Of a stretch of DNA of 64,000 nucleotides, positions 6,104 through 59,466 are shown one piece after another. Under the pieces are notes generated by a model. The model was given only the letters and a program-made list of their open reading frames with translations, was not told where the DNA came from and searched no databases. Both the position numbers and the translations under genes were made by a program. The stretch is from Candidatus Latescibacterota bacterium (GTDB taxonomy: Bacteria > Latescibacterota > UBA2968 > UBA8231): NCBI GenBank assembly GCA_964291625.2, contig OZ220089.1, forward strand, positions 416,001 through 480,000. Reading direction: 5' to 3'. How positions within the stretch are numbered: position 1 is the stretch's first letter; each line of letters starts with the position of its first letter.

Positions 6104-6418
6104 TCAGGAGCGGGGTGGGGCGCGGTTCTCGAAGGAGTAGCCGCGGAAGAAGAGCGGCAGCGGGAGGGACCAGGGAGTACCCCTGCGGAGGCGGGTACCG
6201 GCGCTCCCGAAAAGGAGCGGAAGGATGACGACCACGAGCAGCACGAGGCCGCTCTCGATCATGCAGACCGGGCAGCTCTCCGGCCCGGCTTCCCCCTCGT
6301 GCTCGTGAAACAGCTCGTGACCGAAGGGAAGGGCCAGGAGGAGTCCGATCAGCAGGGCCCCGAGGCAGAGCGCTGCCAGATTCGCGGGCCCTCGGCGGTC
6401 CTTGCGGTCGTGCTTCAC
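6104..6418 (-). CDS. DUF2946/CruR-like small membrane protein with CxxC and C-terminal RAPP motif
   Basis: TM segment, HELFHEH, CPVC, second hydrophobic segment, C-terminal ENRAPPRS; GTG start overlaps the WD40 stop (GTGA). Confidence 0.65.
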   Translation of the reverse strand: MKHDRKDRRGPANLAALCLGALLIGLLLALPFGHELFHEHEGEAGPESCPVCMIESGLVLLVVVILPLLFGSAGTRLRRGTPWSLPLPLFFRGYSFENRAPPRS

Positions 6419-7461
6419 CCGTTGCTCACTCGCCAGACCGTGGCGCCACCCTGGGCGTCGAGGGCGGCCAGGGCGCGGCCATCGGGCCGCCAGTACAAGG
6501 CGCCGACAACATCCGCCACGGGCGCAGCTCCTATCGGATCGCCTTGTCCATCGCGCCTGAGCGACCACACGACGACGGCGCCATCCCGGGCTCCCGAGGC
6601 CAGGCGCATCCCGCGGCGAGCGAAGGCGAGGGCTGTAACCGTTCGAGCATGATGCTCCAGAACGCCGGGCCGCGTGCCTTCGGGACCACTCCCCCGAAAG
6701 CTCCAGACCGTCACCGCCTCGCCTCCGCCGGTGGCCAGCAGGGTGCCGGTGTCATCGAAGGCCAGGGCCGACGGCTTGGCCGGATATCCCGACATCATCG
6801 AGTCCTCCTCCGTGGAGCGGCGCCAGAAGTGAACCGAGTTGTCCTGGCTGCCGCAGGCCACGATATCCCCGTCCGGGCTCAGTACCAGCGACACCAGGGA
6901 GCCCTGCCACTCCAGCTTCTGGCGAAGCTCCCCGGTGGACGCGTCGAAGAACGCCACCCGGCCGTAACAGGCCGTCGCCAGCTCCTCGGCGCCGGACCAG
7001 GCGATGGCGCTGACGGTGCTGGGATGGTCGTCTGATCGCCAGACTTCTCCGCCGTTGGCAGCATACGCGCGAACCTGCCGGGAGCAGGAGGCTGCCAGCC
7101 ACTGGCCGTCGGGCGACCACGCCACGTTTTCCACCCAACCGCCGCCGACGTCGATAGCCTCGCTGACCTGACCGTCGGCGACGCGCCAGATGAGGACTCG
7201 TCCGTCCTGGCCGGCCGTAGCGAACGTGGTTCCACCAGGGTGGATCGCCATGGCGAGGACGCCGCCATCGTGAGCTCCCTGCCGCGCCCAGGCGCTTGCG
7301 CCGGACTTGCCGTCGAAGGCGTGGACGCCGCCCGCGGCGTCACCGACCACCAGCGCCTCGCCGCGGAGGGTCCAGCCCCCGGCGATGGCGTAGTCGCCGG
7401 CCTCCGCGGACCAGCCCCGGCGAAGAGCGCCCCTCGGGCCGCCGGCATTCAGATCAGACAT
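6415..7461 (-). CDS. WD40 repeat protein
   Basis: Repeated H..V..lAWSPDG..LA(T/S)G..D..V.lW units. Confidence 0.85.
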   Translation of the reverse strand: MSDLNAGGPRGALRRGWSAEAGDYAIAGGWTLRGEALVVGDAAGGVHAFDGKSGASAWARQGAHDGGVLAMAIHPGGTTFATAGQDGRVLIWRVADGQVSEAIDVGGGWVENVAWSPDGQWLAASCSRQVRAYAANGGEVWRSDDHPSTVSAIAWSGAEELATACYGRVAFFDASTGELRQKLEWQGSLVSLVLSPDGDIVACGSQDNSVHFWRRSTEEDSMMSGYPAKPSALAFDDTGTLLATGGGEAVTVWSFRGSGPEGTRPGVLEHHARTVTALAFARRGMRLASGARDGAVVVWSLRRDGQGDPIGAAPVADVVGALYWRPDGRALAALDAQGGATVWRVSNG

Positions 7462-8795
7462 GCCTCGAATCCCTGCCGCATGCTCTGCTCATCGAGGTTG
7501 CGGCCGATGAACACGAGCTGATTTCGGCGGGGCTCGTCGTCCCATGGACGATCCGGCTGTCCGTCGAAGAGCATGTGAACCCCCTGGAAGACAAAGCGGC
7601 GCGACTCCCCCGCGAGACTGATGAAGCCTTTCATCCGGAAGATGTCCACCCCGCGCTCGCGGAGCAGCTCGCCGAGCCAGTCGTTGAGCCTGTCGGGATC
7701 GACGTCGCCGTCCCTCTCGATGGCGATCGAGCCCACCGCGTCGTCGTGCTCGTGCTGTGCAACCCAGGTGCGTTCGACCTGCGGCCCGATCGCCGCTCCA
7801 TCCGCATCCGTCAGCCGGAGATCGAACTCTTCCGCGGTGTGCTGGGCGTAGAGGCCCACCCGCACCTGCTCGTCGACCTCGAGGAAGAACGACTTGGGCC
7901 CCGGGGAATCCAGCTGCAGGTTCACGTGCTTTCCGACCGGGATCGCTTCCCCCGGGCCAATGAGCTCCGCAGGTTCGGCGTACCGCCGCACACACCACTC
8001 CGCACTCTCCCGGAGGGCGGCGTCATCCGTGCCCTGGTCGGAGACGACGACGAGGGACATGGCCGGGTCGGGTCCCTCGGCCAGGCCGAGCTCGTATCGG
8101 CCGGTCTGGAGCGCATAGACTCCGGTCCACTCAAAGGGGTATTCCGGCTCGAGGAAATCGGGACGACGGTCGAGCACCTGGTCCAGGTCGAAGGCGCCGA
8201 GGTTGAGTACCGTGTCGACGGGTGCGTTCCCCCGTTCGCTGCGCACGACCCGCGCCATTCGGTTCATCTCTCGGAGCCGCGCCTCGAGCCTGTCGAGGGT
8301 CTCGCCGTTGACGAGGTCCGTCTTGTTGAGCACGAGGACGTCCGCGAATGCGACCTGCTCCGTGCTTTCGTCGCTGCGGCCGAGCTGCTGCTCGATGTGG
8401 GCTGCATCGACGAGCGTGACGATCCCGTCGAGGGAGAATTCCTCGCGAATCTCGTCGTCCATGAAGAAGGTCTGGGCGACCGGGCCGGGATCGGCGAGCC
8501 CCGTGGTCTCCACCAGCACATAGTCGAACTTGTCCCGGCGCTTCATGAGATTGCCGAGGACGCGAATCAGGTCTCCCCGCACCGTGCAGCAGATGCAGCC
8601 ATTCGACATCTCGAAGATCTCCTCGTCCGCGTCGATGACCAGGGCCTGATCGATACCGACCTCCCCGTACTCGTTCTCGATCACGGCGATGCGCTTGCCG
8701 TGCTCCTCACTCAGGACCCGGTTGAGCAGGGTCGTCTTTCCGGAGCCGAGGAAACCTGTGAGGATCGTTACGGGTACTCTTGGAGGCGTGTTCAT
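7449..8795 (-). CDS. CobW/COG0523 family metallochaperone GTPase
   Basis: GFLGSGKTT, GCICC, ETTG, NKTD, C-terminal CobW_C (RMKG..QGVH..LVFIG); ATG 8795 overlaps the upstream stop. Confidence 0.92.
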   Translation of the reverse strand: MNTPPRVPVTILTGFLGSGKTTLLNRVLSEEHGKRIAVIENEYGEVGIDQALVIDADEEIFEMSNGCICCTVRGDLIRVLGNLMKRRDKFDYVLVETTGLADPGPVAQTFFMDDEIREEFSLDGIVTLVDAAHIEQQLGRSDESTEQVAFADVLVLNKTDLVNGETLDRLEARLREMNRMARVVRSERGNAPVDTVLNLGAFDLDQVLDRRPDFLEPEYPFEWTGVYALQTGRYELGLAEGPDPAMSLVVVSDQGTDDAALRESAEWCVRRYAEPAELIGPGEAIPVGKHVNLQLDSPGPKSFFLEVDEQVRVGLYAQHTAEEFDLRLTDADGAAIGPQVERTWVAQHEHDDAVGSIAIERDGDVDPDRLNDWLGELLRERGVDIFRMKGFISLAGESRRFVFQGVHMLFDGQPDRPWDDEPRRNQLVFIGRNLDEQSMRQGFEACLI

Positions 8796-10165
8796 CTTGT
8801 TCTCCCGGGGAGCGTGGTGATGTGCCGATCGACATCCGCGAGGCCAGCGCGGATGAGCCACGGTCTCGACAGCCCTTCCGCCGCAGGCCCGTCGAAGAGC
8901 AGCCGCCGGTCTCGCAGCAGGACGACGCGCGCGGCCGGGGATGGCAGTGAGTGGAGGCAGTGAGTGGCCCAGACGCACGCGGCGCTCGTCCGGCGAACGG
9001 ACTCTTCCACGAGCGTGCGCAGCTCGTGGGCGGCGACGGGATCGAGCCCGGCCGTGGGCTCGTCGAGGAGCAGCAGCGCGGGCTCGAGGACCAGGAGACC
9101 GGCGAGCGCCACCCGGCGCTGCTCCCCGAAGCTGAGCTGATGGCACGGACGCTCCAGCAGATGGTCTATGCCCAGGGCCGTCGCCGCCTCCCGGGATCGA
9201 CGCCGCGCCTCGACGACTTCGACGCCACGGCGAAGCAGACCCCAGGCAATGTCCTCGGCCACGGTGCTGGCGATGAAGTGGTGTTCCGGGTTCTGGCCCA
9301 GAAGCGCCACGCGTCCGTCGAGCCGGGCGCCGAGCCTCCCACCGGGCGACACCTGCTTTCCGAGGCGAGCCATGGTCCCTTGCGCCGGTCCGTCGAGCCC
9401 CGCGAGCAGGCGCAGCAAGCTCGATTTCCCGGCTCCACTCGGCCCACACACGAGGAGCCACTCCGCTCTTGCCAGGCGAAGTTCGACCTGCTCGAGCACC
9501 CGCTGCCCACCGCGTTCGACGTCGATGGCATCGAGGTGAACGCCGTCCTGAGCCCGAAGGTCCTCGGACGGGGCGCTGCGGAGCAGCGCGTTCTCCTCGG
9601 CACGTTCGAGGCGCTCGAAGGCATGCAGGGCCCCTTCGCCGAGCAGCGGTCCCCAGGCGCCCAGGGGCAACCGCGGTGACCCCAGGCGGAGGCGGGCGGC
9701 GTCACGCCGCTGGACCCACTCACGCTGGGTGAGAACACCGTGCATGAGCGCGTGGTCGAGGCTGGCCACCACGCCCTCGGGAATCCGCAGCCGGAGCAGG
9801 AGTTGCCGCAGCGACGCCCAGTCGACCTGGGTGCCAAGCCAGAGGACCCAGATGACGCCACACAGGACCCGGACGCTCGTCCGGACGATGGCGTCCGCGT
9901 GGGAGTCCAGGGCCACCCCGCCAAGCAGCGCGAGGGCCACGAGGGCCAGGGTCCAGGCGAGGGCCGGCTCGATCCTTCGGCGTCCACGGGCCCGCGCCAA
10001 CAGCAGGAGCGCCGCGCCCATCCCCGAGCCGATCAGGGACAGGGTGGTACTGCGCGTGCCCGCGTTGACGATCAGTACGCCGCCGGTCAGGGCGATGGCC
10101 ATTGCCGCAACCCACAGCGGTTGGCGGCGCTCGAAGAACAGGGGGTGCTCAGCGTGGAGGTGCAT
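8792..10165 (-). CDS. Fused ECF T component + ATPase (CbiQ-CbiO-like)
   Basis: N-terminal TM region; C-terminal GPSGAGKS, QNPEH, LSFGEQRR, LLLDEPT. Confidence 0.8.
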   Translation of the reverse strand: MHLHAEHPLFFERRQPLWVAAMAIALTGGVLIVNAGTRSTTLSLIGSGMGAALLLLARARGRRRIEPALAWTLALVALALLGGVALDSHADAIVRTSVRVLCGVIWVLWLGTQVDWASLRQLLLRLRIPEGVVASLDHALMHGVLTQREWVQRRDAARLRLGSPRLPLGAWGPLLGEGALHAFERLERAEENALLRSAPSEDLRAQDGVHLDAIDVERGGQRVLEQVELRLARAEWLLVCGPSGAGKSSLLRLLAGLDGPAQGTMARLGKQVSPGGRLGARLDGRVALLGQNPEHHFIASTVAEDIAWGLLRRGVEVVEARRRSREAATALGIDHLLERPCHQLSFGEQRRVALAGLLVLEPALLLLDEPTAGLDPVAAHELRTLVEESVRRTSAACVWATHCLHSLPSPAARVVLLRDRRLLFDGPAAEGLSRPWLIRAGLADVDRHITTLPGRTR

Positions 10166-11771: not shown

Positions 11772-13478
11772 TCACGCGAAATCCGATCTCCAGAGATGAA
11801 CCGCCCTTGCCGCAAGCTGGCGCTGCCGTTCGTCCACCAGTTCCGGCGTCCATTGCTCGGGCGCCAGTGCGGGAATCTTCCGGGTCAGGGCATAGGCGCT
11901 GTTCTCGTAGGCCGCGCGCTTTTCGCCATATGTCGCATTCCCGACCTCGCGATTGGCGGAGGCTTCGAGAAGGGTGAGATTGCCGAGGCGGTACGTCGAT
12001 GCCTCCCTCGCTCCGGGCGCGAAGGACTCGCTCCAGGCCTCGGCCGGGTTCTCCGGCAGGACATGCTCGATCGTGCCGGGGTCCGTGTCCGGATCGCAGG
12101 CGCGGTCGGCGGCATCCTCTTCGAGTCGCGCCAGGATGTACTTGGCCAGTTTCCTTCTGGAGCCGCGGGTGTTCACGGTGAGGAGGGCGAAATCCTGGCG
12201 CATCTTCTCGTCGTCCACGTAGATCGGCTTCAAGTATTCGAAGACCTCCGAGGGGCCGGCGGCGGCGCCGTCGAGCACCGCCCTGGCGGCGCCGTGGTAG
12301 ACGGGTTCGAGGGCATTCGTGTTGAGGCGGCTGATCACGGTGTAGCGGCAGGAAACCACGCTGACGAGCTTCAGGATGCGGGCGAAGTCCTCCCTCAGAG
12401 ATTCCCACGCGGCGAACAGCAGGGGCATCGCCTGGTGTACTCGAAAAAGGTTGAGCTCACGGATGTAGGGCCTCGCAGCCGGCCATTCCGTCCAGTAGCT
12501 GTGGTTCGGGTCCGAGACCGCGGCGAAGAGCTCTGCCCGCCCTTCGAGGTGGTCGAGGAGACTGAATACATCCTGCGTCGTCTTCGTCCGGTCCCGTACC
12601 AGCTTGAAGAGCCGTCCGCTCCGTACTTTCGGCAGCTCGCAGAGCATGTGATAGCGCAGGAACTCCGGAAACCGCTCCTGTTCCACGGTCGAGACGAGGA
12701 ATCGCCACCGGCGCTGGAGCGCTTCCAGGTCGGCGGCCACGCGCACTCGAGAGAACAGGTAGTTCTTGAGCAGATCCGTGGTCGTCAGTTCCAGGCCGCG
12801 CGCGTTGAGCGTCTCGAAGACGGTGTAGGCCTTCAGCTCGTCGTCTACCGTGATGAGGATGAACAGGAACTGGCGGGCCAGGGTCTCGGACAGGAGGCTC
12901 GCCATGCCTATCCCGTCGACCTCCAACCCGTCGGCCTCTGCAAGGCAATCCCTGAAGAAGAGAAAGCACTCCCGGAGCCGCCGGTTCGACTTCGGCAGCC
13001 CCCCGGGGTTGAGCGGCTCCCTGAGTTGAACGAGGTAGTCCTGGTAGAAAGGATTGTCCGTCTCGTTGAGGTACAGCCGCGTGGACTCGGTGAGGGATGC
13101 CGGATCCTTCTCTCCGATGAAGCGATTGCGAAGCTCCCGGCCGCGCTCCCGGTTGGCATCGACGTCGATCCCCTGGTCGGCCATCGTCTGCAGCCGGTCG
13201 ATCACGGCGAGGGCGAAGAGGCTCAGTGTGGCCAGGCGCTGCTGGCCGTCGATGATCTGGAACTCACGGTCGCTCTTCCCTTCGACGACCAGGGCGCCCA
13301 TGTAGTGGCGGTCTTCCGCGCGAGGCCTCAACTCGACGATGTCATTCCATAGATCCTCCCACTGCTCCTGCGACCAGGAGTAATCGCGCTGGTAGGGAGG
13401 CACGCGGTACAACTTGCCGTTGCCGATCAGTTCCATGTAGTTGATCGTGCGAGTGTTCAGGATGTTCGCTGTCGCCAT
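11772..13478 (-). CDS. GmrSD-like DUF262 + DUF1524 (HNH) protein, putative modification-dependent restriction nuclease
   Basis: VPPYQRDYSW, IDGQQRL, FETLNARG (DUF262); IEHVLPEN, LGNLTLL..N (DUF1524). Confidence 0.88.
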   Translation of the reverse strand: MATANILNTRTINYMELIGNGKLYRVPPYQRDYSWSQEQWEDLWNDIVELRPRAEDRHYMGALVVEGKSDREFQIIDGQQRLATLSLFALAVIDRLQTMADQGIDVDANRERGRELRNRFIGEKDPASLTESTRLYLNETDNPFYQDYLVQLREPLNPGGLPKSNRRLRECFLFFRDCLAEADGLEVDGIGMASLLSETLARQFLFILITVDDELKAYTVFETLNARGLELTTTDLLKNYLFSRVRVAADLEALQRRWRFLVSTVEQERFPEFLRYHMLCELPKVRSGRLFKLVRDRTKTTQDVFSLLDHLEGRAELFAAVSDPNHSYWTEWPAARPYIRELNLFRVHQAMPLLFAAWESLREDFARILKLVSVVSCRYTVISRLNTNALEPVYHGAARAVLDGAAAGPSEVFEYLKPIYVDDEKMRQDFALLTVNTRGSRRKLAKYILARLEEDAADRACDPDTDPGTIEHVLPENPAEAWSESFAPGAREASTYRLGNLTLLEASANREVGNATYGEKRAAYENSAYALTRKIPALAPEQWTPELVDERQRQLAARAVHLWRSDFA

Positions 13479-13608
13479 CAGTCCGCTCCGATCGATCGCC
13501 CAGCCAGCAGTTCCCGCCCGTCCCGCCGAAGTCCGGCTCCCGCTCCTGGGCCCCTCCTTCGATAAGATAGGACCCATGCTACCCGGGCACCCTTCAAGTC
13601 GGCCGGGC

Positions 13609-14583
13609 TCAGGCCAGTTGCTCGTAGGCGCGATGGACGATGTCGAGGTCGCGGCGGGCGCGCGCCAGGCCGGAGTACGGCGACGCCTCGCGGGAGGAGA
13701 GGCAGAGGAGGAAGTCGTCGGTCATGCGTCCGTACCCCATGAGGTCGGCGAAGCCGGGGAAGCTGAGGCCCTTGCGCCCGGGGCCGCGCACGTGGAGGTA
13801 GAGGCCGTTGCTCTCGAAGAGGATGCGGCCCTCGGCCCCGTCGACGCGGGAGTGCTGGAAGACCCCCTTGCCCAGGGTCGGCAGGTCCCAGGCGTAGAGC
13901 AGATGCGCCTCCAGTCCGCCGTCCCAGCTCAGGCTCAGGCGGCAGCGCCGCTCCGGGGAGCCCTTCCGGGAGGTCGGGAACTCGGCCGCCACCTGGAGGG
14001 GGGCGCTCACCGGGGCCGGCTCCTGGCGGCGCGCCAGGGCCGCGTCGGCGAGATCGGCGATGAGGGCCACGAAGTGGATGCCGCCCTCCAGCAGGGCGCC
14101 GTGCCCGGCCTTCCAGCCCTCGGACTCCTGCCCCGTGAGCTTCTTCACCCGCATCGACCGCACGGCGCCGACGCCGTCCCAGGCGACGATCTCCCGCATC
14201 AGGACCTGGGAGGGCTTGTAGTAGTAGTTCTCGGCGACCATGACGAAGGCGCCGCCGGGCGCTTCGGCAGCCGCCTCCTCGATTCGCAGCAGCTCCGCGG
14301 CATCGACACACAGCGGCTTCTCCACCAGCACCGGGGTCCCGCCGGCCAGGGCCTGCAGGGTCTGCTCCGCGTGCATCTCCGGAGGCGTGGCGACCACCAC
14401 GCCGTCACTGGACTCCACCAGCTCGCTGAAGCTGCCGCAGGCACGGCCTCCGAACTCGCGGGCGAAAGCCTCGGCCTTCTCGCGGGTGCGGTTGTGGAAG
14501 CGCAGCTCCACCCCGCGCTCCGCCAGGTTGCGGGCGTGCAGGCGGCCGATGCCGCCGCACCCGGACAGCCCGACCCGCTTCAT
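13609..14583 (-). CDS. Gfo/Idh/MocA family oxidoreductase
   Basis: GCGGIG, VATPPEMH, LVEKP, GGIH. Confidence 0.85.
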   Translation of the reverse strand: MKRVGLSGCGGIGRLHARNLAERGVELRFHNRTREKAEAFAREFGGRACGSFSELVESSDGVVVATPPEMHAEQTLQALAGGTPVLVEKPLCVDAAELLRIEEAAAEAPGGAFVMVAENYYYKPSQVLMREIVAWDGVGAVRSMRVKKLTGQESEGWKAGHGALLEGGIHFVALIADLADAALARRQEPAPVSAPLQVAAEFPTSRKGSPERRCRLSLSWDGGLEAHLLYAWDLPTLGKGVFQHSRVDGAEGRILFESNGLYLHVRGPGRKGLSFPGFADLMGYGRMTDDFLLCLSSREASPYSGLARARRDLDIVHRAYEQLA

Positions 14584-16079
14584 CCCCGCTCCCCCCCGGC
14601 GATGGCCGGCGCCACCCGCAGGGCGTTGGCGGCGATCGTCAGGCTGGGGTTGACGCCGCCGCTGGCGGGGAAGCAGGAGCCGTCCACGACCCACAGGTTG
14701 TCCACCCCCCACAGCCGGCACCCGGGGTCCAGGGCGCCGTCGTCGGGGGAGGCGGCCATGCCCACGGAGCCGACGCCGTGGGAGAAGGTGTCGATCTCGT
14801 AGACCCGGGTGGTCCAGGCCCCGGCCGTCCGGAGCAGCCGGCGGGCCCGGGCGACGAGGTGATCCCGGCGGCGCAGGTCGGCGGGGCCGTACTCGTGGTC
14901 GACCTGCGGCACCCGGACGCCGAAACGGTCCCTCTCGTCGGAGAGGGATACCCGGTTCTCCGGCCGGGGGTCGTCCTCGGCAACGCAGAGCAGGTTCTGC
15001 ATGTAGGCGGACATCCAGCCGGCGAGCCTCTTCAGGCCCGGGGGCGCGTGGTGGCGGATCACCGCCGCCGCGGGGGTGTAGATGTCCTGCACCGTGCCCG
15101 TGGCGGTGCCCAGCTCGGCCCGCAGGTCCTCGTAGAACTCGGTGAAGCAGAGCTGCTTGTGGAAGACCTGGCGCGGGTTGGTGGGGGCGCGGAAGAGGCC
15201 GGCCACCACGGCGTTGCAGTGCCGCATCAGCCGCCGCCCGATCCAGCGGCCGCCGGGGCTGTCCTCGCCGAGACCGGAACGCAGCAGCAGCGCCGGGGAG
15301 TGCAGGGCGCCGGCGGCGACGACGAACCTGTCCGCCTCGAACTCATGTCCTTCCCCGGTCTCGACGTCGACGCACTGGGCCGCCGCGGCCCTCCCCCCCT
15401 CCAGGCGCAGGCGCAGGGCCGCCGCGCCGGCGCGGATCTCCAGCCCCAGCTCCGCCGCCCGTCGCAGCACGGTCACCGCCAGGTCGTTCTTCGCCTCGAT
15501 CTTGCAGGGGAAGCCGTCGCAGGTGTTGCACAGGATGCACCGGGGGCGGGCGTCGTCGCTGAAGTTGAGGGCCAGGGGGATGGGAAAGGGCCGCCAGCCG
15601 AGGCGCCGGGCGGCGGCGCGCAGCCGCTGGGCGGGTTCGGTGAACGGGACCGGCGCCCGCGGATAGGCCGCCGACCTCGGGGGCTCGCAGGGGTCGGCGC
15701 CGGCCTCGCCGTGCACGTCGAGGAGCGCCTCGGCCCGGGTGTAGTGGGGCTCCAGCTCCCCGTAGGAGAGGGGCCAGCGGTCGAGGTCGGCCTCGCGCAG
15801 GCGCAGGGAGGCGCCGCCGTAGACCACGGAGTGGCCGCCCAGCATCTCCATCGGCCGCAGCGGCGCGTGGCGCCGGGCCCCGTACTGGCGCACCTGCACC
15901 GGCGACGCGCTGCGGTAGCGATCGCCGGTCACCACTTGGCGCGGGTCCCAGTCGCCGTCGTCGCGGCGCACCGGCCGGCCGCGCTCGAGGAGCAGCACCC
16001 GCAGCCCCGCCTCGGTCAGGGCCAGGGCGGTGAAAGCGCCGCCGAAACCGGAGCCGATGACGACGGCGTCGTACGCCAT
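14580..16079 (-). CDS. GMC family FAD oxidoreductase
   Basis: VIGSGFGG, CxxCxxCxxxxC cluster (CILCNTCDGFPC), LLRSG, H-G, VVDGSCFP..NPSLTIAANA. Confidence 0.88.
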   Translation of the reverse strand: MAYDAVVIGSGFGGAFTALALTEAGLRVLLLERGRPVRRDDGDWDPRQVVTGDRYRSASPVQVRQYGARRHAPLRPMEMLGGHSVVYGGASLRLREADLDRWPLSYGELEPHYTRAEALLDVHGEAGADPCEPPRSAAYPRAPVPFTEPAQRLRAAARRLGWRPFPIPLALNFSDDARPRCILCNTCDGFPCKIEAKNDLAVTVLRRAAELGLEIRAGAAALRLRLEGGRAAAAQCVDVETGEGHEFEADRFVVAAGALHSPALLLRSGLGEDSPGGRWIGRRLMRHCNAVVAGLFRAPTNPRQVFHKQLCFTEFYEDLRAELGTATGTVQDIYTPAAAVIRHHAPPGLKRLAGWMSAYMQNLLCVAEDDPRPENRVSLSDERDRFGVRVPQVDHEYGPADLRRRDHLVARARRLLRTAGAWTTRVYEIDTFSHGVGSVGMAASPDDGALDPGCRLWGVDNLWVVDGSCFPASGGVNPSLTIAANALRVAPAIAGGERG

Positions 16080-21088: not shown

Positions 21089-21882
21089 GCGACCACCCCC
21101 GAATCGGCCTCGTCGGCTTCGGCTACATCGGATCCTACGTGTACGAGCAGATCACCACGCGCCCGGAGCTGGGCCTCGACATCGCCTTCGTCCACAACCG
21201 CAGCCCCGGACGCGTCGCCGGGCTGCCAGCAGAGCACGTCCTCGAGGACCTGGGAGCCTTCGCGGGTCACGGCGCCGACCTTGTCGTCGAGGTCGCCCAC
21301 CCCGACATCACCCGCGGCCACGGCCGCGCCTTCCTCGAGGCCGCCGACTACATGCCCCTCTCCCTGACCGCCTTCGCCGACGCCGAGCTCGAAGCCGCAC
21401 TCCTCGACACGGCCCGCTCCGCCGGCACCCGCCTCTTCGTCCCCCACGGCGCCGTGGTCGGACTCGACGCCCTCGAAGAGGGCCGCGAGACCTGGAACGA
21501 GGTGGGCATGGTCATGAAGAAGCCGGTGCGCAGCCTCGACTTCTCCAGCGCCCCCGGCATCGATCCGGAGGCGATCACCAGGGAGACCACCCTCTTCGAC
21601 GGCACCGCCCGGGAGATCTGCCCCCTCTACCCCCGCAACGTCAACTCCCACGCCGCCGTGGCCCTGGCCGGCATCGGCTTCGACCGCACCCGCTCGGTGC
21701 TGATCGCCGACCCGGCCCTGGAGGCCTCCATCATCGAGGTGGAGGCCCGGGGCGGCGGCGTGCAGATCTCGATCCGCCGAGAGAACCCGATGAAGGGCGT
21801 CAGCGGCGTGATGACGTTGATGTCGACGCTGGCCAGCATCGGGCGTGCGAAGGGGGATGCGCCGGGGCTGCGGGTTTGTTGA
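21085..21882 (+). CDS. L-aspartate dehydrogenase-like protein (NadX/DUF108)
   Basis: GFGYIG, VVEVAH, PHGAVVGLD, KKP, YPRNVNSHAA; GTGA overlap and AAGGAG RBS. Confidence 0.78.
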   Translation: MSDHPRIGLVGFGYIGSYVYEQITTRPELGLDIAFVHNRSPGRVAGLPAEHVLEDLGAFAGHGADLVVEVAHPDITRGHGRAFLEAADYMPLSLTAFADAELEAALLDTARSAGTRLFVPHGAVVGLDALEEGRETWNEVGMVMKKPVRSLDFSSAPGIDPEAITRETTLFDGTAREICPLYPRNVNSHAAVALAGIGFDRTRSVLIADPALEASIIEVEARGGGVQISIRRENPMKGVSGVMTLMSTLASIGRAKGDAPGLRVC

Positions 21883-22003
21883 ATCCATTCTGCCGGACAG
21901 TTCCCTTTTCCCCATGTCGCACCACCCTCTGGTTTGGTTTCATTCGGTTCATGCGGTCTCCTCAGGGCCCCGCGCTGGAAGAGTTATCAACAAGGAGTCT
22001 CTG

Positions 22004-23473
22004 ATGCCAAGGCGCCCTCGGCAGCATCAGCTAGAGACAGAGTCCCAGGCCGCCATTCGAACTGCCGTTCCTTCCAAATGGGTCTACCGCGACCTAAAGG
22101 ATGACTATGGAGTCGACTCTGAGGTGGAAATCTTCGATGATGAAGGTCGGGGAACGGGCGAGAAGTTCCTGGTGCAGTTGAAGGCAACGGACGAGCGAGA
22201 TCTCGGGAAGGCGCTCAGAGTGTGGCTTCCCCGAGCGAAGCTGAGATACTTCGCGTCTCTTGAACAGCCCGTGCTTCTTGTGCGATTCCACGCGCCCACC
22301 CAAACGCTGTACGCTCGGTGGTTTCACTCTTGGGACCCCTACTATGAACCGATGCGGAGAGCCGGCGCATCTCTACTCTTTCGCGAAGAGGATCTCTGGA
22401 ATGAGGCGACATCGACGTCAATTGAACGCGATGTCAGAGCTTTTCGGGACGTTCGATCTCCAAGGATACCGGGGCCGATCTCCTTTTCTCTTCAGTGCGA
22501 TGGTGACTTCCATGGGACGCCTTCATTCGAGGTCAAGCTTAGGCTCAAGGAGTCCTGTCATGACCTGAGGCATATCATCAATTTTGATGGCGACTCCACC
22601 TCACCGTATCGAATCCACCTCTCAGATGAACTGATCGAGGTGAGGATTGCAGGATCTCACGGGTGCAGCCTGCACTCCAAGGGGCAACCTGATGCTGAAT
22701 CTAGTCCCCCGACCCACCATGACATCATTATGGCCATCGCTCTGGCAGTGGACCAGACGGGACACGCAGTAGAGGCCGCCCAGATCATGGAGCCCTTCCT
22801 TCCTCAGTCGCGGTTGGTTGCTCAACCCGAGGTGGCACTGATGGCTGCGCTGTGTCTCGCAAAGGCAAATCAGATGCACCTAGCACTTGAGGTAGCAGCT
22901 CTACTGTTCGAGGATGACACATCGGCCTATTCTGCACGGGTTTTTCTCCTGCCTCTCCTGGCACGGCACTCTCAGATGCCCGCCACAGCGCAAGACCTGT
23001 GTGTAAGGGTCCTTAGAAAGGGCTCTGAGCAGTTAGAGTCGAGGTCAGACAAGTCAGGGGCCGCATCCTTGGAGTACACCTGTGGAAACTATCTTCGAAG
23101 TTTGGGACGATTGAGGGAGGCCCTGAGTACCTATCGCAGGGCCGCGCAACTCGACCCCGAGTACGAGAAGCGGGAATACTACTGGCGGGAGTTGGGAGGC
23201 ATTCTCTTCATGGGTCAGAGATATCGGGCTGCAGTCACGGTTTACGCCCGAGCCCTTACAATCAAGGACCAAAGGTTCACGAAGCTGTTGCACGCCGACG
23301 CTTTGATGTTTGCAGGGGAGTACAAGAGAGCTGAGGAGGAATTTGCCCAGCTTCTCGAGACACCGATTGATACTGAGGACTTCGAGTGGGCACTGAAGAG
23401 GCTGGCACTCTCTCTGGATTCGCCAACAGGTGGGTATAGACGCTCAGAACCGAGGGAGGGCGAGGTACCCTGA
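22004..23473 (+). CDS. DUF4365 (PD-(D/E)xK-like nuclease) + TPR protein, 5' part of a frameshifted gene
   Basis: DYGVDSEVEIFD...VQLKAT; TPR helices (LGRLREALSTYRRAAQLDP); AAGGAG RBS; visibly lower GC. Confidence 0.75.
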   Translation: MPRRPRQHQLETESQAAIRTAVPSKWVYRDLKDDYGVDSEVEIFDDEGRGTGEKFLVQLKATDERDLGKALRVWLPRAKLRYFASLEQPVLLVRFHAPTQTLYARWFHSWDPYYEPMRRAGASLLFREEDLWNEATSTSIERDVRAFRDVRSPRIPGPISFSLQCDGDFHGTPSFEVKLRLKESCHDLRHIINFDGDSTSPYRIHLSDELIEVRIAGSHGCSLHSKGQPDAESSPPTHHDIIMAIALAVDQTGHAVEAAQIMEPFLPQSRLVAQPEVALMAALCLAKANQMHLALEVAALLFEDDTSAYSARVFLLPLLARHSQMPATAQDLCVRVLRKGSEQLESRSDKSGAASLEYTCGNYLRSLGRLREALSTYRRAAQLDPEYEKREYYWRELGGILFMGQRYRAAVTVYARALTIKDQRFTKLLHADALMFAGEYKRAEEEFAQLLETPIDTEDFEWALKRLALSLDSPTGGYRRSEPREGEVP

Positions 23474-23924
23474 CGAATTTCCCAATGGATTCCAAGCCTC
23501 AGAGATCGTGGAGTCTTGTAGAGCAGCCTTGCAGATAGATGCCCTAGATGGCCTCGCATGGTTCAACCTTGGTGCATCCTTTCAGCAGAGCGGCAAACAG
23601 GATGAGGCAGCCAAGTCGTTTCTAACTGCGGCGCTTGTTCGCCCGGGAGATCTTGAGGCATGGGGAAATGTCGTCGCATATGGGATGAACGAGAACCACC
23701 TCGTTCTAGTCAGCCTTGCGGCTTGCACAGCCTACAGGCTTAATGGTGAAGAGTTCCTTCGAGAGCTGGCAAAGCGCATCCCCGGCCCCGACAAGCAGGA
23801 TCAATTCGTGAATCTGATGGGCGAATTCCTCGCGCAGGTGCAGAGAACGGAGGACTCAATGACCTTGAGAGCACACGACGACTCAGGTGGGTGGAAGGAA
23901 TTCAGAATTCCTACTGCAGGATAA
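23415..23924 (+). pseudogene. C-terminal TPR fragment of the DUF4365-TPR gene (out of frame)
   Basis: ALQIDALDGLAWFNLGASF TPR continues in another frame from the (CT)4 tract at 23408-23415; no evident RBS of its own. Confidence 0.65.
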
Positions 23925-50432: not shown

Positions 50433-51347
50433 ATGAGAACCCTCCTCATCCCCATCGCCGCTGCCATGGCCCTGTCGAGCCTCTTCTCCTGCTCGGGGAA
50501 TGATGACAGGCAGCTCAACGAACCCGGCACGGACGCAACCGGCCTGTCGACGCGATCCCTACTGCATGACGGCGTGGCCAAGGAGTACATCCTGTATGTG
50601 CCGGATTCCTACGATGGCACTTCGGACGTTCCGCTGATGCTCAACTTCCACGGCTTCGGGGGGACGGCGGAGGAATACCTGAACTACGCGGACATGCGGT
50701 CCCTGGCCGAGATGGACACCTTCCTCCTCGTCTATCCTCAAGGCACCTTGCTGGATGGTGATCCGCACTGGAATGCCGGTCTGGAATCGGAGGAGAACAA
50801 GAGCGACGCCGATGACTTCGGCTTCGTGGAAGCCTTGATCGACGAACTCTCCTCCGCGTACAGCATCGATGAAACGAGAGTATATGCCTGCGGCTACTCG
50901 AACGGCGCCTTCTTCGCCTATGCCCTTGCCTGCTATCACGGCGACAGGATAGCGGCCATCGGCTCCGTTGCCGGCACCATGATGGAGGAGACATACGCCA
51001 ACTGCGGCCCGTCCCACCCGACGGCCGTGGTGAGCATCCACGGCACATCCGACAAGGTTGTCCCCTATGACGGGGGTGAGGGGCTGGTCTCGGTTGACGA
51101 GGTGCTCGCCTACTGGACGGGTTTCAACAAGACGAGCACCGCCCCGGCGAAAGACAGCAGGAACGACCGGGGAACGACGATACAGCACTACTCATATGCG
51201 GACGGAGACAGCGGTATTTCCGTGGAGCACTACAAGGTGGTCGGCGGAGATCACGTCTGGTTCGAAATCCGCTACGACGGCTCAGATACGAGTGGTCTGA
51301 TCTGGGACTTCGTGTCGAGGTATTCCATCGACGGACTGAGACGGTAG
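50433..51347 (+). CDS. PHB depolymerase/LpqC-type esterase lipoprotein
   Basis: Lipobox-like FSCS, NFHG, GYSNG nucleophile elbow, HGTSD, GDHVW. Confidence 0.8.
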   Translation: MRTLLIPIAAAMALSSLFSCSGNDDRQLNEPGTDATGLSTRSLLHDGVAKEYILYVPDSYDGTSDVPLMLNFHGFGGTAEEYLNYADMRSLAEMDTFLLVYPQGTLLDGDPHWNAGLESEENKSDADDFGFVEALIDELSSAYSIDETRVYACGYSNGAFFAYALACYHGDRIAAIGSVAGTMMEETYANCGPSHPTAVVSIHGTSDKVVPYDGGEGLVSVDEVLAYWTGFNKTSTAPAKDSRNDRGTTIQHYSYADGDSGISVEHYKVVGGDHVWFEIRYDGSDTSGLIWDFVSRYSIDGLRR

Positions 51348-51420
51348 AGCCGGGGCTTGCCCTCTACCCTGGCATTCCAGACGTTACCCCGAGAGACAAC
51401 AACAGAAAGGGAGAACACCC

Positions 51421-52158
51421 ATGTCAGGAATCGAACCCGCATCCCGATTGACCCGCCTGGACGGTGCCAGGATCGGACTTCTGGACCCGGGAAAGCGTAC
51501 TACAGGAGCCATTCTCGAGGCGGTCGGGGAGCGGCTCGCAGCAGAGCACGACGCGCACCCGGTCGGGCCCTGGAGAAAGTCATCCCCCTACCGCGTCTGC
51601 ACGAAGAAACTGCTGGAGGAAGTGGTTCCCCGGTGCGACGCGCTCGTCATGGGGGTCGTGGACTGATGCGGCGCAAGCTCGTGCAGTTTGCACGACATGC
51701 TGGAGTTCGAGCTGAGAGGCATTCCGACCGCCTACATCACGGCCGCGGGAAGGGTTCCACGGATCGAGCGTGATGGCGACGGGTTCAGCCTGTCCCACGC
51801 GACAGGGAGCTACCTGGTCGAGGGATGGGAGGACCCCGGTCCGCAGTCGGACAAGGTGCATCGGAGGCTGATGCACTTCGGAGTACACCGCAGGATGAGG
51901 ATGTGCGGTGTGGAGGAGGGGGACCGGGTCCGCTACGGCGGCAGGGACCTGCGATGGGAGTATCCTCGAGAGGAACAGGAAGCCCGGTTCAGGCCTCCCG
52001 GAGCCGGCGCCTGGTCGAGCCCCCTTGACGGCGTCGCAGGCTACAGGTGGATCGAGCTGCGCGCCTTTTCCCTGCCCGTGGAAGGCGATGAGTTCGAGGA
52101 AAGCGTGGAGGAGGCCGTCCCCCAGGTGGTGTCGATTCTGACAGGTGGAGGGACGTGA
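51421..52158 (+). CDS. UGSC-like thioredoxin-fold selenoprotein (Sec at codon 82) with inserted Obg-CTD-like segment
   Basis: ORFs 51421-51666 and 51688-52158 are in frame across a single TGA; read-through gives GVVD-U-CGASSCSLHD..E.RGIPT; SECIS-like hairpin follows. Confidence 0.8.
51667..51701 (+). promoter_or_regulatory. Putative bacterial SECIS element
   Basis: Perfect stem TCGTGCA-GTT-TGCACGA (51679-51695) beginning 12 nt after the UGA, G-first apical loop, extendable by AGC/GCT. Confidence 0.7.
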
Positions 52159-52205
52159 GTTCGCGATCCGCCGGCCGATCGCCTCGGGGCCGTCGCCAAT
52201 CCTGG

Positions 52206-55408
<3,203 letters not shown>

Positions 55409-58258: not shown

Positions 58259-59466
58259 CGACGGTGGCGTCAGCCGACGGGGCGCCGGACCGGGATGTGG
58301 TCCTCACCCTGGACCACGGCGTGCTCCTCATGCACGACCCCCGGGCCGCGGAGGCCGCCTTCATCGACGAGATCTTCGAGAAGGCCCGCCGCCGCGGCAT
58401 CGGGACGATCCTCTGGCGGACCCTGGCCGGAGCTCGTGGACCCTACCGCAGCCGCTCGGTCCCGACCATGGCCGACCAGTCCGCGTCCTGGGAGCAACTG
58501 CTGGGGGGCATGGACCCCCTCCAGGCCGCCGTCGACAGCGCCCGGCGCCACAGTCTCCGCCTCTTCGCCTGGGCGACCCTGCAGGACTTCCACATCGTCC
58601 GCGACTGGGGCGTGCGCAACACCTCCCCCTTCTTCGACGAGCGCCCCCACCTCTACTGGTCCGGCGTCGACGGCACGAGCCGCCACCCCGGCATCCCCTG
58701 CTACGCCTACGAGGAGGCCCGGCGCTACTACCTGGACCACCTCGAGGAGGTGCGGGAGTACGGCGTGGACGGCCTCTTCGTCTGCTTCCGCAGCCACGCC
58801 GGCGAGCCGGCCGAGGACGACGCCTTCGGGTACAACCCGCCCTGGCTCGAACAGCTGCGCCGGGAGACCGGGGTCGACGCCCCGCCCGGGCGCATCCGCG
58901 AGCTGCCCTGGCTGGCCTGGCGCCTGCAGAAGATCCGCGGCGACTCGTACACGCTGCTGTTGCGGGAGATCCGCGAGGCGGCCGGGTCCCTGCCCGTATG
59001 GGTGAGCACCTCGGAGGAGCCGGACATCCTCATCGCCGGCCACTCGGAGAAGGAGAACCCCGGCCGCGCCCTGCACAGGGCCCGCCTCGACCTAGGCCGC
59101 TGGTGCCGGGAGGACCTGGTGGACGCGGTGGTGGTCGTCACCAGCCGCCTCAACCCGTGCGACCCGTCTGTGGCCGAGGTCTGGCGCGACACGACGGCGC
59201 GCTCCGGCAAGAAGCTCTACACCTGGCTGAACATGATCTGCCACTTCCACGACGGGGAGGGCCGGCTCGCCAAGCGGACCCCGACGCCGGCGGAGCTGCG
59301 CGGCATCGTCCGGAGTGCGGGGGACTGCCGCATCGACGGGCTGGTGCTGCACGAGACGGCGGACCTGGAGACCTCCTACCGGAGGGTGGTCGTCGACGGC
59401 GAGAGACAGGTGGTCAACGAACCCCATGCGGACCCCGAGGCCCAGTGGGACGCCCTCGCACCTTGA
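58255..59466 (+). CDS. GHL10-like (glycosyl hydrolase-like TIM barrel) protein
   Basis: DPLQAAVDSARRHSLRLFAW, YGVDGLF, FGYN; GTGA overlap. Confidence 0.6.
   Translation: MTTVASADGAPDRDVVLTLDHGVLLMHDPRAAEAAFIDEIFEKARRRGIGTILWRTLAGARGPYRSRSVPTMADQSASWEQLLGGMDPLQAAVDSARRHSLRLFAWATLQDFHIVRDWGVRNTSPFFDERPHLYWSGVDGTSRHPGIPCYAYEEARRYYLDHLEEVREYGVDGLFVCFRSHAGEPAEDDAFGYNPPWLEQLRRETGVDAPPGRIRELPWLAWRLQKIRGDSYTLLLREIREAAGSLPVWVSTSEEPDILIAGHSEKENPGRALHRARLDLGRWCREDLVDAVVVVTSRLNPCDPSVAEVWRDTTARSGKKLYTWLNMICHFHDGEGRLAKRTPTPAELRGIVRSAGDCRIDGLVLHETADLETSYRRVVVDGERQVVNEPHADPEAQWDALAP

Follow-up and report, generated by a model that had tools for sequence, protein, structure and literature searches.

Selenoproteins of the UGSC family, which the ocean-metagenome selenoproteome papers name 'UGSC-containing protein' and count among the most abundant aquatic selenoprotein families (PMC2398784), have no known biochemical function according to section 7 of a 2026 review, which gives NF041046 as the model for the family and in its Table 1 enters it once, with the motif UGSC (PMC13188914). 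In this study, we analyzed 64,000 nt of DNA from a Candidatus Latescibacterota bacterium (contig OZ220089.1, positions 416,001 to 480,000; this whole stretch is called the window hereafter) and describe a gene at 51421-52158 of the plus strand, which is very probably one gene with an internal TGA encoding selenocysteine (Sec), and which belongs, as judged from its sequence, to a branch of the UGSC superfamily with a different motif and an additional domain.

Selenoprotein B (glycine/sarcosine/betaine reductase and PrdB; PF07355, TIGR01917, TIGR01918, TIGR04483) carries a Sec-bearing U-x-x-C(-x-x-C) site, with UxxC listed for GrdB and PrdB and UxxCxxC for GrdB (PMC13188914). A cysteine (Cys) directly next to Sec is precedented as well: in Table 1 of the same review, GxUC and a number of CU motifs appear, for the most part in proteins related to metals. 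For decoding, the bacterial model of the selenocysteine insertion sequence (SECIS) in the legend to Fig. 2 of the review has a loop of 3–9 nt, in whose first two positions there is a G that mostly precedes a G or U, an upper stem of 4–16 bp, a distance of 16–37 nt from the UGA to the loop and a minimum free energy (MFE) of −7.5 kcal/mol or below (PMC13188914).

On the plus strand of the window, two open reading frames (ORFs) in the same frame, 51421-51666 (81 aa) and 51688-52158 (156 aa), are joined in frame by the TGA at 51664-51666. When this TGA is read as a residue, one protein of 245 residues results, with the motif D81-U82-C83-G84-A85-S86-S87-C88. An earlier note on this DNA, made from the sequence alone, had proposed such a joined protein and had suspected that gene callers split it; the sequence and the ORF list bear out the former, and the databases the latter. 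In a collection of 5.8 billion proteins, all 31 close relatives are C-terminal pieces of 138–196 aa that cover at most 63% of the joined protein (the query), and the 14 of them that were aligned each begin at or beyond residue 90. The 81-aa N-terminal piece of the window stands in the database as a separate entry (P0034).

A scan of one genome per species yielded 22 related loci with 64–89% protein identity, giving 23 sequences together with the window; three of the loci (L002, L004, L021) come from one assembly. The record titles mostly name Candidatus Latescibacterota, and some name Gemmatimonadota or Gemmatimonadaceae. In 22/22 loci, tblastn returned one in-frame match through the stop, extending over residues 1-243/246 in 21 loci and over residues 1-122 in L022, which is truncated by the contig end. 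The codon at the Sec position is TGA in 23/23 sequences and never TAA or TAG, the surrounding VVD-U-CGASSCSLHD is identical in all of them, and the Sec codon is followed by 163 codons in 21 of the 22 complete sequences and by 162 in L021. Variable sites at the first, second and third codon positions number 27/19/68 in 79 codons upstream of the TGA and 10/7/32 in 40 codons downstream, and codons 83-86, which lie ahead of any possible restart codon, carry synonymous changes only. Judged from this alignment, evolution is of the coding type on both sides of the conserved in-frame TGA.

An exhaustive search of cluster representatives gave 162 matches at E ≤ 0.001, including full-length relatives of 212–254 aa (the long form, e.g. 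P0033 with 45% identity), canonical UGSC proteins of about 180 aa and many pieces. Column counts were taken from an alignment of the query with the 148 matches listed out of these 162. The earlier note had named the residue of homologues at the TGA position as a check, and in this column (hereafter the U column) it is Cys in 9/9 long-form and 87/94 canonical homologues. Furthermore, 22 of 23 N-terminal pieces end exactly before the U column, and C-terminal pieces of more distant clades (28–38% identity) start at [M/L]-[H/R]-D just past the motif. Within the long branch, the Sec form is therefore widespread, and gene callers had divided it in all cases seen. The strongest indirect argument for decoding as Sec is that the in-frame TGA persists under purifying selection at a Sec/Cys column in no fewer than 20 assemblies.

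Downstream of the TGA, the hairpin reported in the earlier note is present in the sequence as described: TCGTGCA (51679-51685) and TGCACGA (51689-51695) pair perfectly around a G-first GTT loop, the hairpin begins 12 nt past the TGA, and the distance from the TGA to the loop is 19 nt. The claimed match to bacterial SECIS geometry also holds, since the 3-nt GUU loop, the 7-bp stem, the 19-nt distance and the stability of −8.2 kcal/mol all lie within the four published constraints. With RNAalifold, the apical helix was found in 20/20 sequences together with a lower helix pairing 51669-51673 with 51698-51702, and the MFE fold at −14.1 kcal/mol includes both helices. The plus strand of the window contains 73 perfect hairpins with a stem of 7 bp or more and a loop of 3–8 nt, and 4 of 647 TGA triplets have such a hairpin starting 8–20 nt downstream, so that the hairpin alone would be a coincidence of about 1 in 100. 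It rises above chance because it is conserved, not because it is stable: the stem is identical in 23/23 sequences, with the loop changed to GTC (GUC) in L021, and codons 87-91, which cover most of the hairpin, have zero third-position changes in the 23 sequences, with synonymous variation present in the flanking codons 83-86 and 92-97. In the single-sequence MFE structure, GTCGTG, the pair of codons preceding the TGA, can pair with CACGAC in the 3′ arm of the hairpin (51655-51696), giving an alternative long helix around the UGA. This helix was dropped, as it is absent from the alignment consensus.

Table 1. Positions of the gene, its predicted parts and the associated RNA elements in the window
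Feature	Position	Strand	Basis
Shine-Dalgarno-like sequence AAAGGGAG	51406..51413	+	7 nt upstream of ATG 51421; AAAGGAG-like, equal spacing in 22/23 orthologous sequences
Whole gene, 245 codons plus terminal TGA, very probably a selenoprotein	51421..52158	+	Single in-frame tblastn matches
N-terminal part of UGSC core, residues 5-108, beta-alpha-beta-alpha-beta-alpha-beta	51433..51744	+	PF24696 positions 16-119/172, 85.2 bits; AlphaFold pLDDT 91.8
Active-site motif D81-U82-C83-G84-A85-S86-S87-C88	51661..51684	+	Identical in 23/23
In-frame TGA, very probably read as selenocysteine (U82)	51664..51666	+	TGA in 23/23; Cys-form homologues; N-terminal pieces ending there
Candidate bacterial SECIS: apical hairpin plus lower helix 51669-51673/51698-51702	51667..51704	+	RNAalifold, 20 sequences; MFE −14.1 kcal/mol
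Apical SECIS hairpin, 7 bp, loop GUU	51679..51695	+	−8.2 kcal/mol; stem invariant in 23/23
Predicted nested Obg-C-terminal-like (DUF1967) domain, about residues 110-205	51748..52035	+	Absent from canonical UGSC (alignment A2); PF09269 matches; 1udx
C-terminal part of UGSC core, about residues 206-245, strand and long helix	52036..52155	+	Aligns with canonical UGSC C-terminus
Terminal TGA, read as stop	52156..52158	+	Protein end equals homologues' end

The relationship to UGSC selenoproteins suggested in the earlier note stands at the level of the superfamily and not at that of the named family. Pfam PF24696 (UGSC) was matched far above its cut-off of 25 bits, and U82 falls in the U/C column. 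With the NCBIfam equivalog model NF041046, the query reached 61.3 bits and thus remained below the cut-off of 125; long-form relatives scored 38–78 bits and canonical members 136–139 bits. In alignment A2, an insertion of about 85–95 residues (about 110-205) distinguishes the query and its full-length relatives from the canonical proteins, and the last ~40 residues of the query re-align with the canonical C-terminus; the C-terminal pieces of relatives cover profile positions of about 129-171 of PF24696. The query and the UGSC family (PF24696; NF041046) have in common a homologous alpha/beta core, the Sec/Cys at the same column past a conserved G-x-G-D, and the occurrence of both Sec and Cys forms. 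They differ in the motif, which is U-C-G-A-S-S-C in the query and not U-G-S-C, and in the domain of ~95 residues nested in the core. By these comparisons, the protein is a member of the UGSC superfamily in an unnamed 'long' branch.

The active-site motif separates this branch further, where long-form counts out of 10 include the query. At position +1 of the U column, the canonical proteins have Gly in 83/94 and Cys in 0/94 cases, and Cys occurs in 2/10 long-form sequences (the query clade and P0033). At +3, Cys is found in 75/94 canonical proteins vs 1/10 long-form sequences (P0033), i.e. 9/10 long-form sequences lack it, and the query has Ala, so that its motif reads U-C-G-A in place of U/C-G-S-C. 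At +6, canonical proteins have Cys in 25/94 and Trp in 32/94 cases, and long-form sequences have Cys in 6/10. The atypical U-C motif noted earlier instead of U-x-x-C is confirmed by these counts. In the alignment, loss of the +3 Cys and a frequent +6 Cys are features of the long branch, and a vicinal Cys occurs only in the query clade and P0033. The redox chemistry may hence differ from that of the U-G-S-C type.

For the nested domain, which the earlier note had missed, the closest described counterpart is the C-terminal domain of Obg/CgtA (PF09269; TIGR03595; 1udx). PF09269 (DUF1967) matched the query with E 0.033 and 14.7 bits against a cut-off of 27, and TIGR03595 (Obg CgtA extension) with 13.5 bits against 37.65, both below the cut-offs. 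Across the long branch, PF09269 matched 20/20 other long-form sequences at E ≤ 0.1 (21/21 with the query) and 0/7 canonical or otherwise fused members, with scores above the cut-off in two relatives (P0046, 46.4 bits; P0060, 29.2 bits). TIGR03595 was matched in 7/8 long forms and in 20/67 members of alignment A3, with 44.3 bits in P0046. A common motif lies around G-x-H-R-A-L-R-x-A-G-x-x-x-G-D-x-V. Unlike in Obg/CgtA, the domain of the query is nested within another domain, and the protein has no GTPase domain. Cys-form relatives are annotated as 'hypothetical protein' or 'Obg family GTPase CgtA-like protein'.

Structure prediction points in the same direction. In an AlphaFold model based on a 67-row alignment (pLDDT 91.8, pTM 0.89), the core has the order beta-alpha-beta-alpha-beta-alpha-beta, and strand 74-80 leads via U82 into helix 83-98. 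The Obg-C-terminal-like domain is predicted in this model to interrupt the core after its fourth strand, ahead of the strand and helix of the C-terminal part. When modelled by itself (pLDDT 79.9), the insert matched 1udx in the Protein Data Bank (PDB) with E 8.8e-3, probability 1.00 and TMq 0.53 over 84 columns; this was the sole match at E < 0.1, the next one having E 0.93. We take 1udx to be an Obg protein and the matched part to be its C-terminal domain. A Foldseek search of the PDB with the whole model gave generic alpha/beta matches only (TMq ≤ 0.33), the profile of alignment A3 against PDB sequences reached E 0.48 at best, and a search of the ESM Atlas with the Cys homologue P0033 found a UGSC cluster at TM 0.48 only.

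Domain fusions are known from other UGSC proteins. Identity of the long form with the 'UGSC/Unknown_1' fusion drawn in Fig. S1A of PMC2398784 was ruled out, as that domain follows the core and is a different one. The 'Unknown_1' domain of that figure matches a C-terminal domain of ~380 aa in the canonical UGSC proteins P0100 and P0142. Fusions of UGSC proteins to NifU-like and 'Unknown_1' domains are possible clues to the function of the family.

A second likeness concerns selenoprotein B. Weak matches to GrdB TIGR01917, far below its cut-off, were obtained for 16/67 UGSC-family sequences (best E 6.4e-5), and among the same 67 sequences TIGR01918 was weakly matched by 10, PrdB by 9, GrdF by 8 and GrdH by 6. 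In P0066, the match to selenoprotein B covers residues 78-148 and so includes residue 92, which is the Cys of the U column. The GrdB spacing agrees with the canonical UGSC pattern C/U-x-x-C-x-x-[C/W], and the query retains positions 0 and +6 of U-x-x-C-x-x-C. Unlike selenoprotein B, the query protein is about half the size, and no grd or prd genes were seen beside its gene in the window and the loci. As judged from these sequence matches, a relation to the selenoprotein B reductases would be remote at best.

Taken together, we consider it highly probable that 51421-52158 is a single gene for a 245-residue selenoprotein of the UGSC long branch with a nested Obg-like domain and a Sec redox centre. 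SelB carrying Sec-tRNA(Sec) would bind the stem-loop and direct selenocysteine to residue 82, and translation would end at the second UGA (52156), which lacks a hairpin of this kind. Sec82 would be the nucleophilic redox centre that reacts with the substrate, a neighbouring Cys would resolve the adduct to a selenenylsulfide, and a cellular thiol system would re-reduce it. The resolving residue may be either the clade-specific vicinal C83 or C88 at +6, which is the third position of the U-x-x-C-x-x-C pattern of canonical UGSC proteins, a pattern also reported for selenoprotein B of glycine reductase. The Obg-like insert would presumably serve to bind a partner or substrate. Mammalian thioredoxin reductase has a C-terminal Gly-Cys-Sec-Gly redox centre and is, to our knowledge, the only well-studied precedent for vicinal Sec/Cys redox chemistry. 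By analogy, the adjacent Cys and Sec of the query could form an eight-membered selenenylsulfide ring; unlike in thioredoxin reductase, Sec comes before Cys, the site lies within the chain at the start of a helix and not on a flexible C-terminal tail, and the fold is unrelated.

Several observations weigh against this explanation. The fold of 76 nt has a z-score of −0.38, i.e. its stability is unexceptional for this G+C-rich DNA (68.6% G+C in the window), and 18% of 500 shuffles of the 44 nt past the TGA were equally stable. RNAalifold found compensatory changes in 0/18 pairs, so that the RNA structure rests on conservation and not on covariation, and the lower helix is only predicted. An Rfam scan of 51300-52300 at E ≤ 10 gave five chance-level matches, none of them at the hairpin. 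In 4/9 long-form Cys homologues, the Cys at the U column is the only one near the active site, so that the family does not require an internal resolving Cys. The query itself had no match to GrdB, GrdF, GrdH or PrdB at E ≤ 0.1, and the likeness to selenoprotein B is thus a lead on the mechanism and not a sign of membership. With respect to the Sec machinery, no selA, selB or selD was found with Pfam among 40 proteins of the window or with NCBIfam among the ORFs of the 22 loci (191 with a length of 250 aa or more, searched through 102 representatives), and tRNA scans of the window and the 22 loci returned no tRNA of any kind, hence no tRNA-Sec. Since the window of 64 kb and the loci of 9–21 kb are a small part of genomes of ~5–7 Mb, the absence of Sec machinery from the scanned DNA says little. 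No convincing second gene with an in-frame TGA was found among 43 candidates, each consisting of two same-frame ORFs with a TGA between them. Twelve of the pairs were translated, among which a recurring candidate of 48+38 codons and others looked like antisense or low-complexity artefacts, and the remaining pairs were the selenoprotein gene itself or same-frame neighbouring genes. The use of Sec by the organism is thus without independent support from sel genes, tRNA or a second selenoprotein gene in the scanned DNA.

Among the alternatives, the binding of a metal ion or Fe-S cluster by U82, C83 and C88 (together with further residues or another subunit), which would make the protein a carrier, scaffold or sensor, is unlikely in our view, and it has a number of points in its favor. 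The closest Cys form, P0033, has the Cys-rich stretch C-C-A-C-S-A-C-C, canonical members carry C-x-x-C-x-x-[WC], and NifU-like fusions occur in some canonical UGSC proteins (P0081 with 32.4 bits, P0134 weaker). Table 1 of PMC13188914 also lists GxUC and CU in (2Fe-2S)-binding proteins of the CopZ type and CU in HgcA, the MerB-like SaoL and MbdU. Yet the 4/9 long-form homologues that retain a single Cys, at the U column, would offer too few ligands. In addition, the Sec lies at a strand-to-helix junction in the model, the usual setting of nucleophilic redox residues, and the recurrent weak similarity of the family to the selenoprotein B reductases also weighs against a metal site.

A further and more doubtful proposal takes the long branch as a distinct and hitherto undescribed selenoprotein family, in which the vicinal Sec-Cys at the start of the helix would form a strained eight-membered selenenylsulfide as a redox switch and the nested domain would couple it to a macromolecular partner; the protein would then be a sensor or regulator, not a metabolic oxidoreductase, present in up to three copies per genome in bacteria labelled Latescibacterota or Gemmatimonadota.

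Reading through of the UGA without Sec machinery, where a near-cognate or suppressor tRNA would insert Trp, Cys or Arg and the hairpin would act as a stimulator, would explain why neither a Sec machinery gene nor tRNA-Sec was seen in the window or the 22 loci; the scanned regions are too small a part of the genomes for this to count for much, the codon is located exactly at the Sec/Cys column of a known selenoprotein family (PMC2398784), and the hairpin agrees with the SelB-type model down to the G-U with which its loop begins, all of which makes this explanation very improbable. We give even less credence to the TGA being a true stop between two small genes or within a decaying pseudogene, with a coincidental or regulatory hairpin. 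The pieces are given separately by public gene callers and the stability of the hairpin is not above chance, as such a stop would have it, but the frame and the single TGA are identical in 23/23 sequences down to 64% identity, the stretch from the TGA to the next start codon shows evolution of the coding type, inspection of the window sequence found the second ORF to start without a Shine-Dalgarno sequence, full-length Cys homologues exist, and the joined protein folds as one compact model with the C-terminal helix of the core supplied by the second ORF. An altered genetic code with TGA as sense codon was ruled out, because TGA is the stop of 20/28 Pfam-supported genes in the window and hence a normal stop here, and also terminates this gene (across the 23 sequences, the terminal stop is TGA in 21 and TAA in 1, with 1 at a contig end).

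In the surroundings of the gene, no conserved operon partner was seen in the window and the 22 loci, and scans for promoters and terminators in 51000-52500 found none. The locus L001 is syntenic with the window, with seven neighbouring proteins being 87–95% identical. Downstream, a glyoxalase-fold gene (52206-53249, minus strand) is convergent with 47 nt between the stops, and this position is kept in 11/22 loci; its orthologue in L001 weakly resembles the AfsK-binding protein KbpA (118 bits vs a cut-off of 250). It is followed by a gene for the catalase-peroxidase KatG (53282-55408, plus strand), ~1.1 kb downstream of the selenoprotein gene. KatG is encoded within 10 kb in 6/22 loci (L001, L002, L004, L009, L018, L020), which may hint at an oxidative-stress neighbourhood with loose linkage, and an esterase is encoded within 10 kb of the gene in 12/22 loci. 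In the assembly with three copies of the gene (L002, L004, L021), two are 85–86% and one is 64% identical to that of the window. Transposases were found in L002 (IS1380 family, 13566-14930) and L009 (IS630 and IS5).

Further features of the window and the loci were recorded. Eukaryote-like repeat proteins are encoded in the window at 6415-7461 (minus strand), 21845-23473 (plus strand) and 58998-62486 (plus strand), i.e. a WD40 protein, a tetratricopeptide repeat (TPR) protein with DUF4365 and a leucine-rich-repeat protein of 1162 aa, and an internalin-like leucine-rich-repeat protein in L005. The third-position G+C content is 0.58–0.62 for the DUF4365/TPR gene and its neighbour (21845-23924, plus strand), 0.73–0.79 for the selenoprotein gene and 0.9–0.99 for many other genes of the window, which suggests genes of different origin or expression level. 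At 7449-9461 (minus strand), an ORF of 670 aa belongs to the CobW/HypB/UreG family, and its GTPase domain starts at residue 230; the long N-terminal extension may be an over-called start. A CobW-related selenoprotein family is included in PMC13188914. Genes of defence type comprise a GmrSD restriction endonuclease in the window (11772-13577, minus strand), a DISARM DrmD-like helicase in L003 (15317-18970) and a TrlF-family ATPase in L017 (14854-17538).

In the literature searched, which included few subscription journals, we found no account of a UGSC branch that has a U-C motif or carries an Obg-like insert, nothing pairing DUF1967 with selenocysteine, and nothing about this protein under Latescibacter* or Gemmatimonad* combined with selenocysteine. 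No new principle is involved, as Sec/Cys families, split gene calls at Sec-UGA codons and vicinal Sec/Cys motifs are already known; what appears to be new, from the sequences compared, is a UGSC branch combining this motif and this insert. The moved second Cys, the nested domain resembling the Obg tail and the likeness to selenoprotein B provide handles on the function of the UGSC family, namely on the identity of the Cys resolving the selenium adduct and on the binding partner of the insert. Wherever it was seen, the gene is mis-annotated, all 31 close database relatives being fragments, and NF041046 misses it (61 vs 125 bits); counts of Sec use in this lineage are therefore too low, and the family would be recovered by a model built for the long branch.

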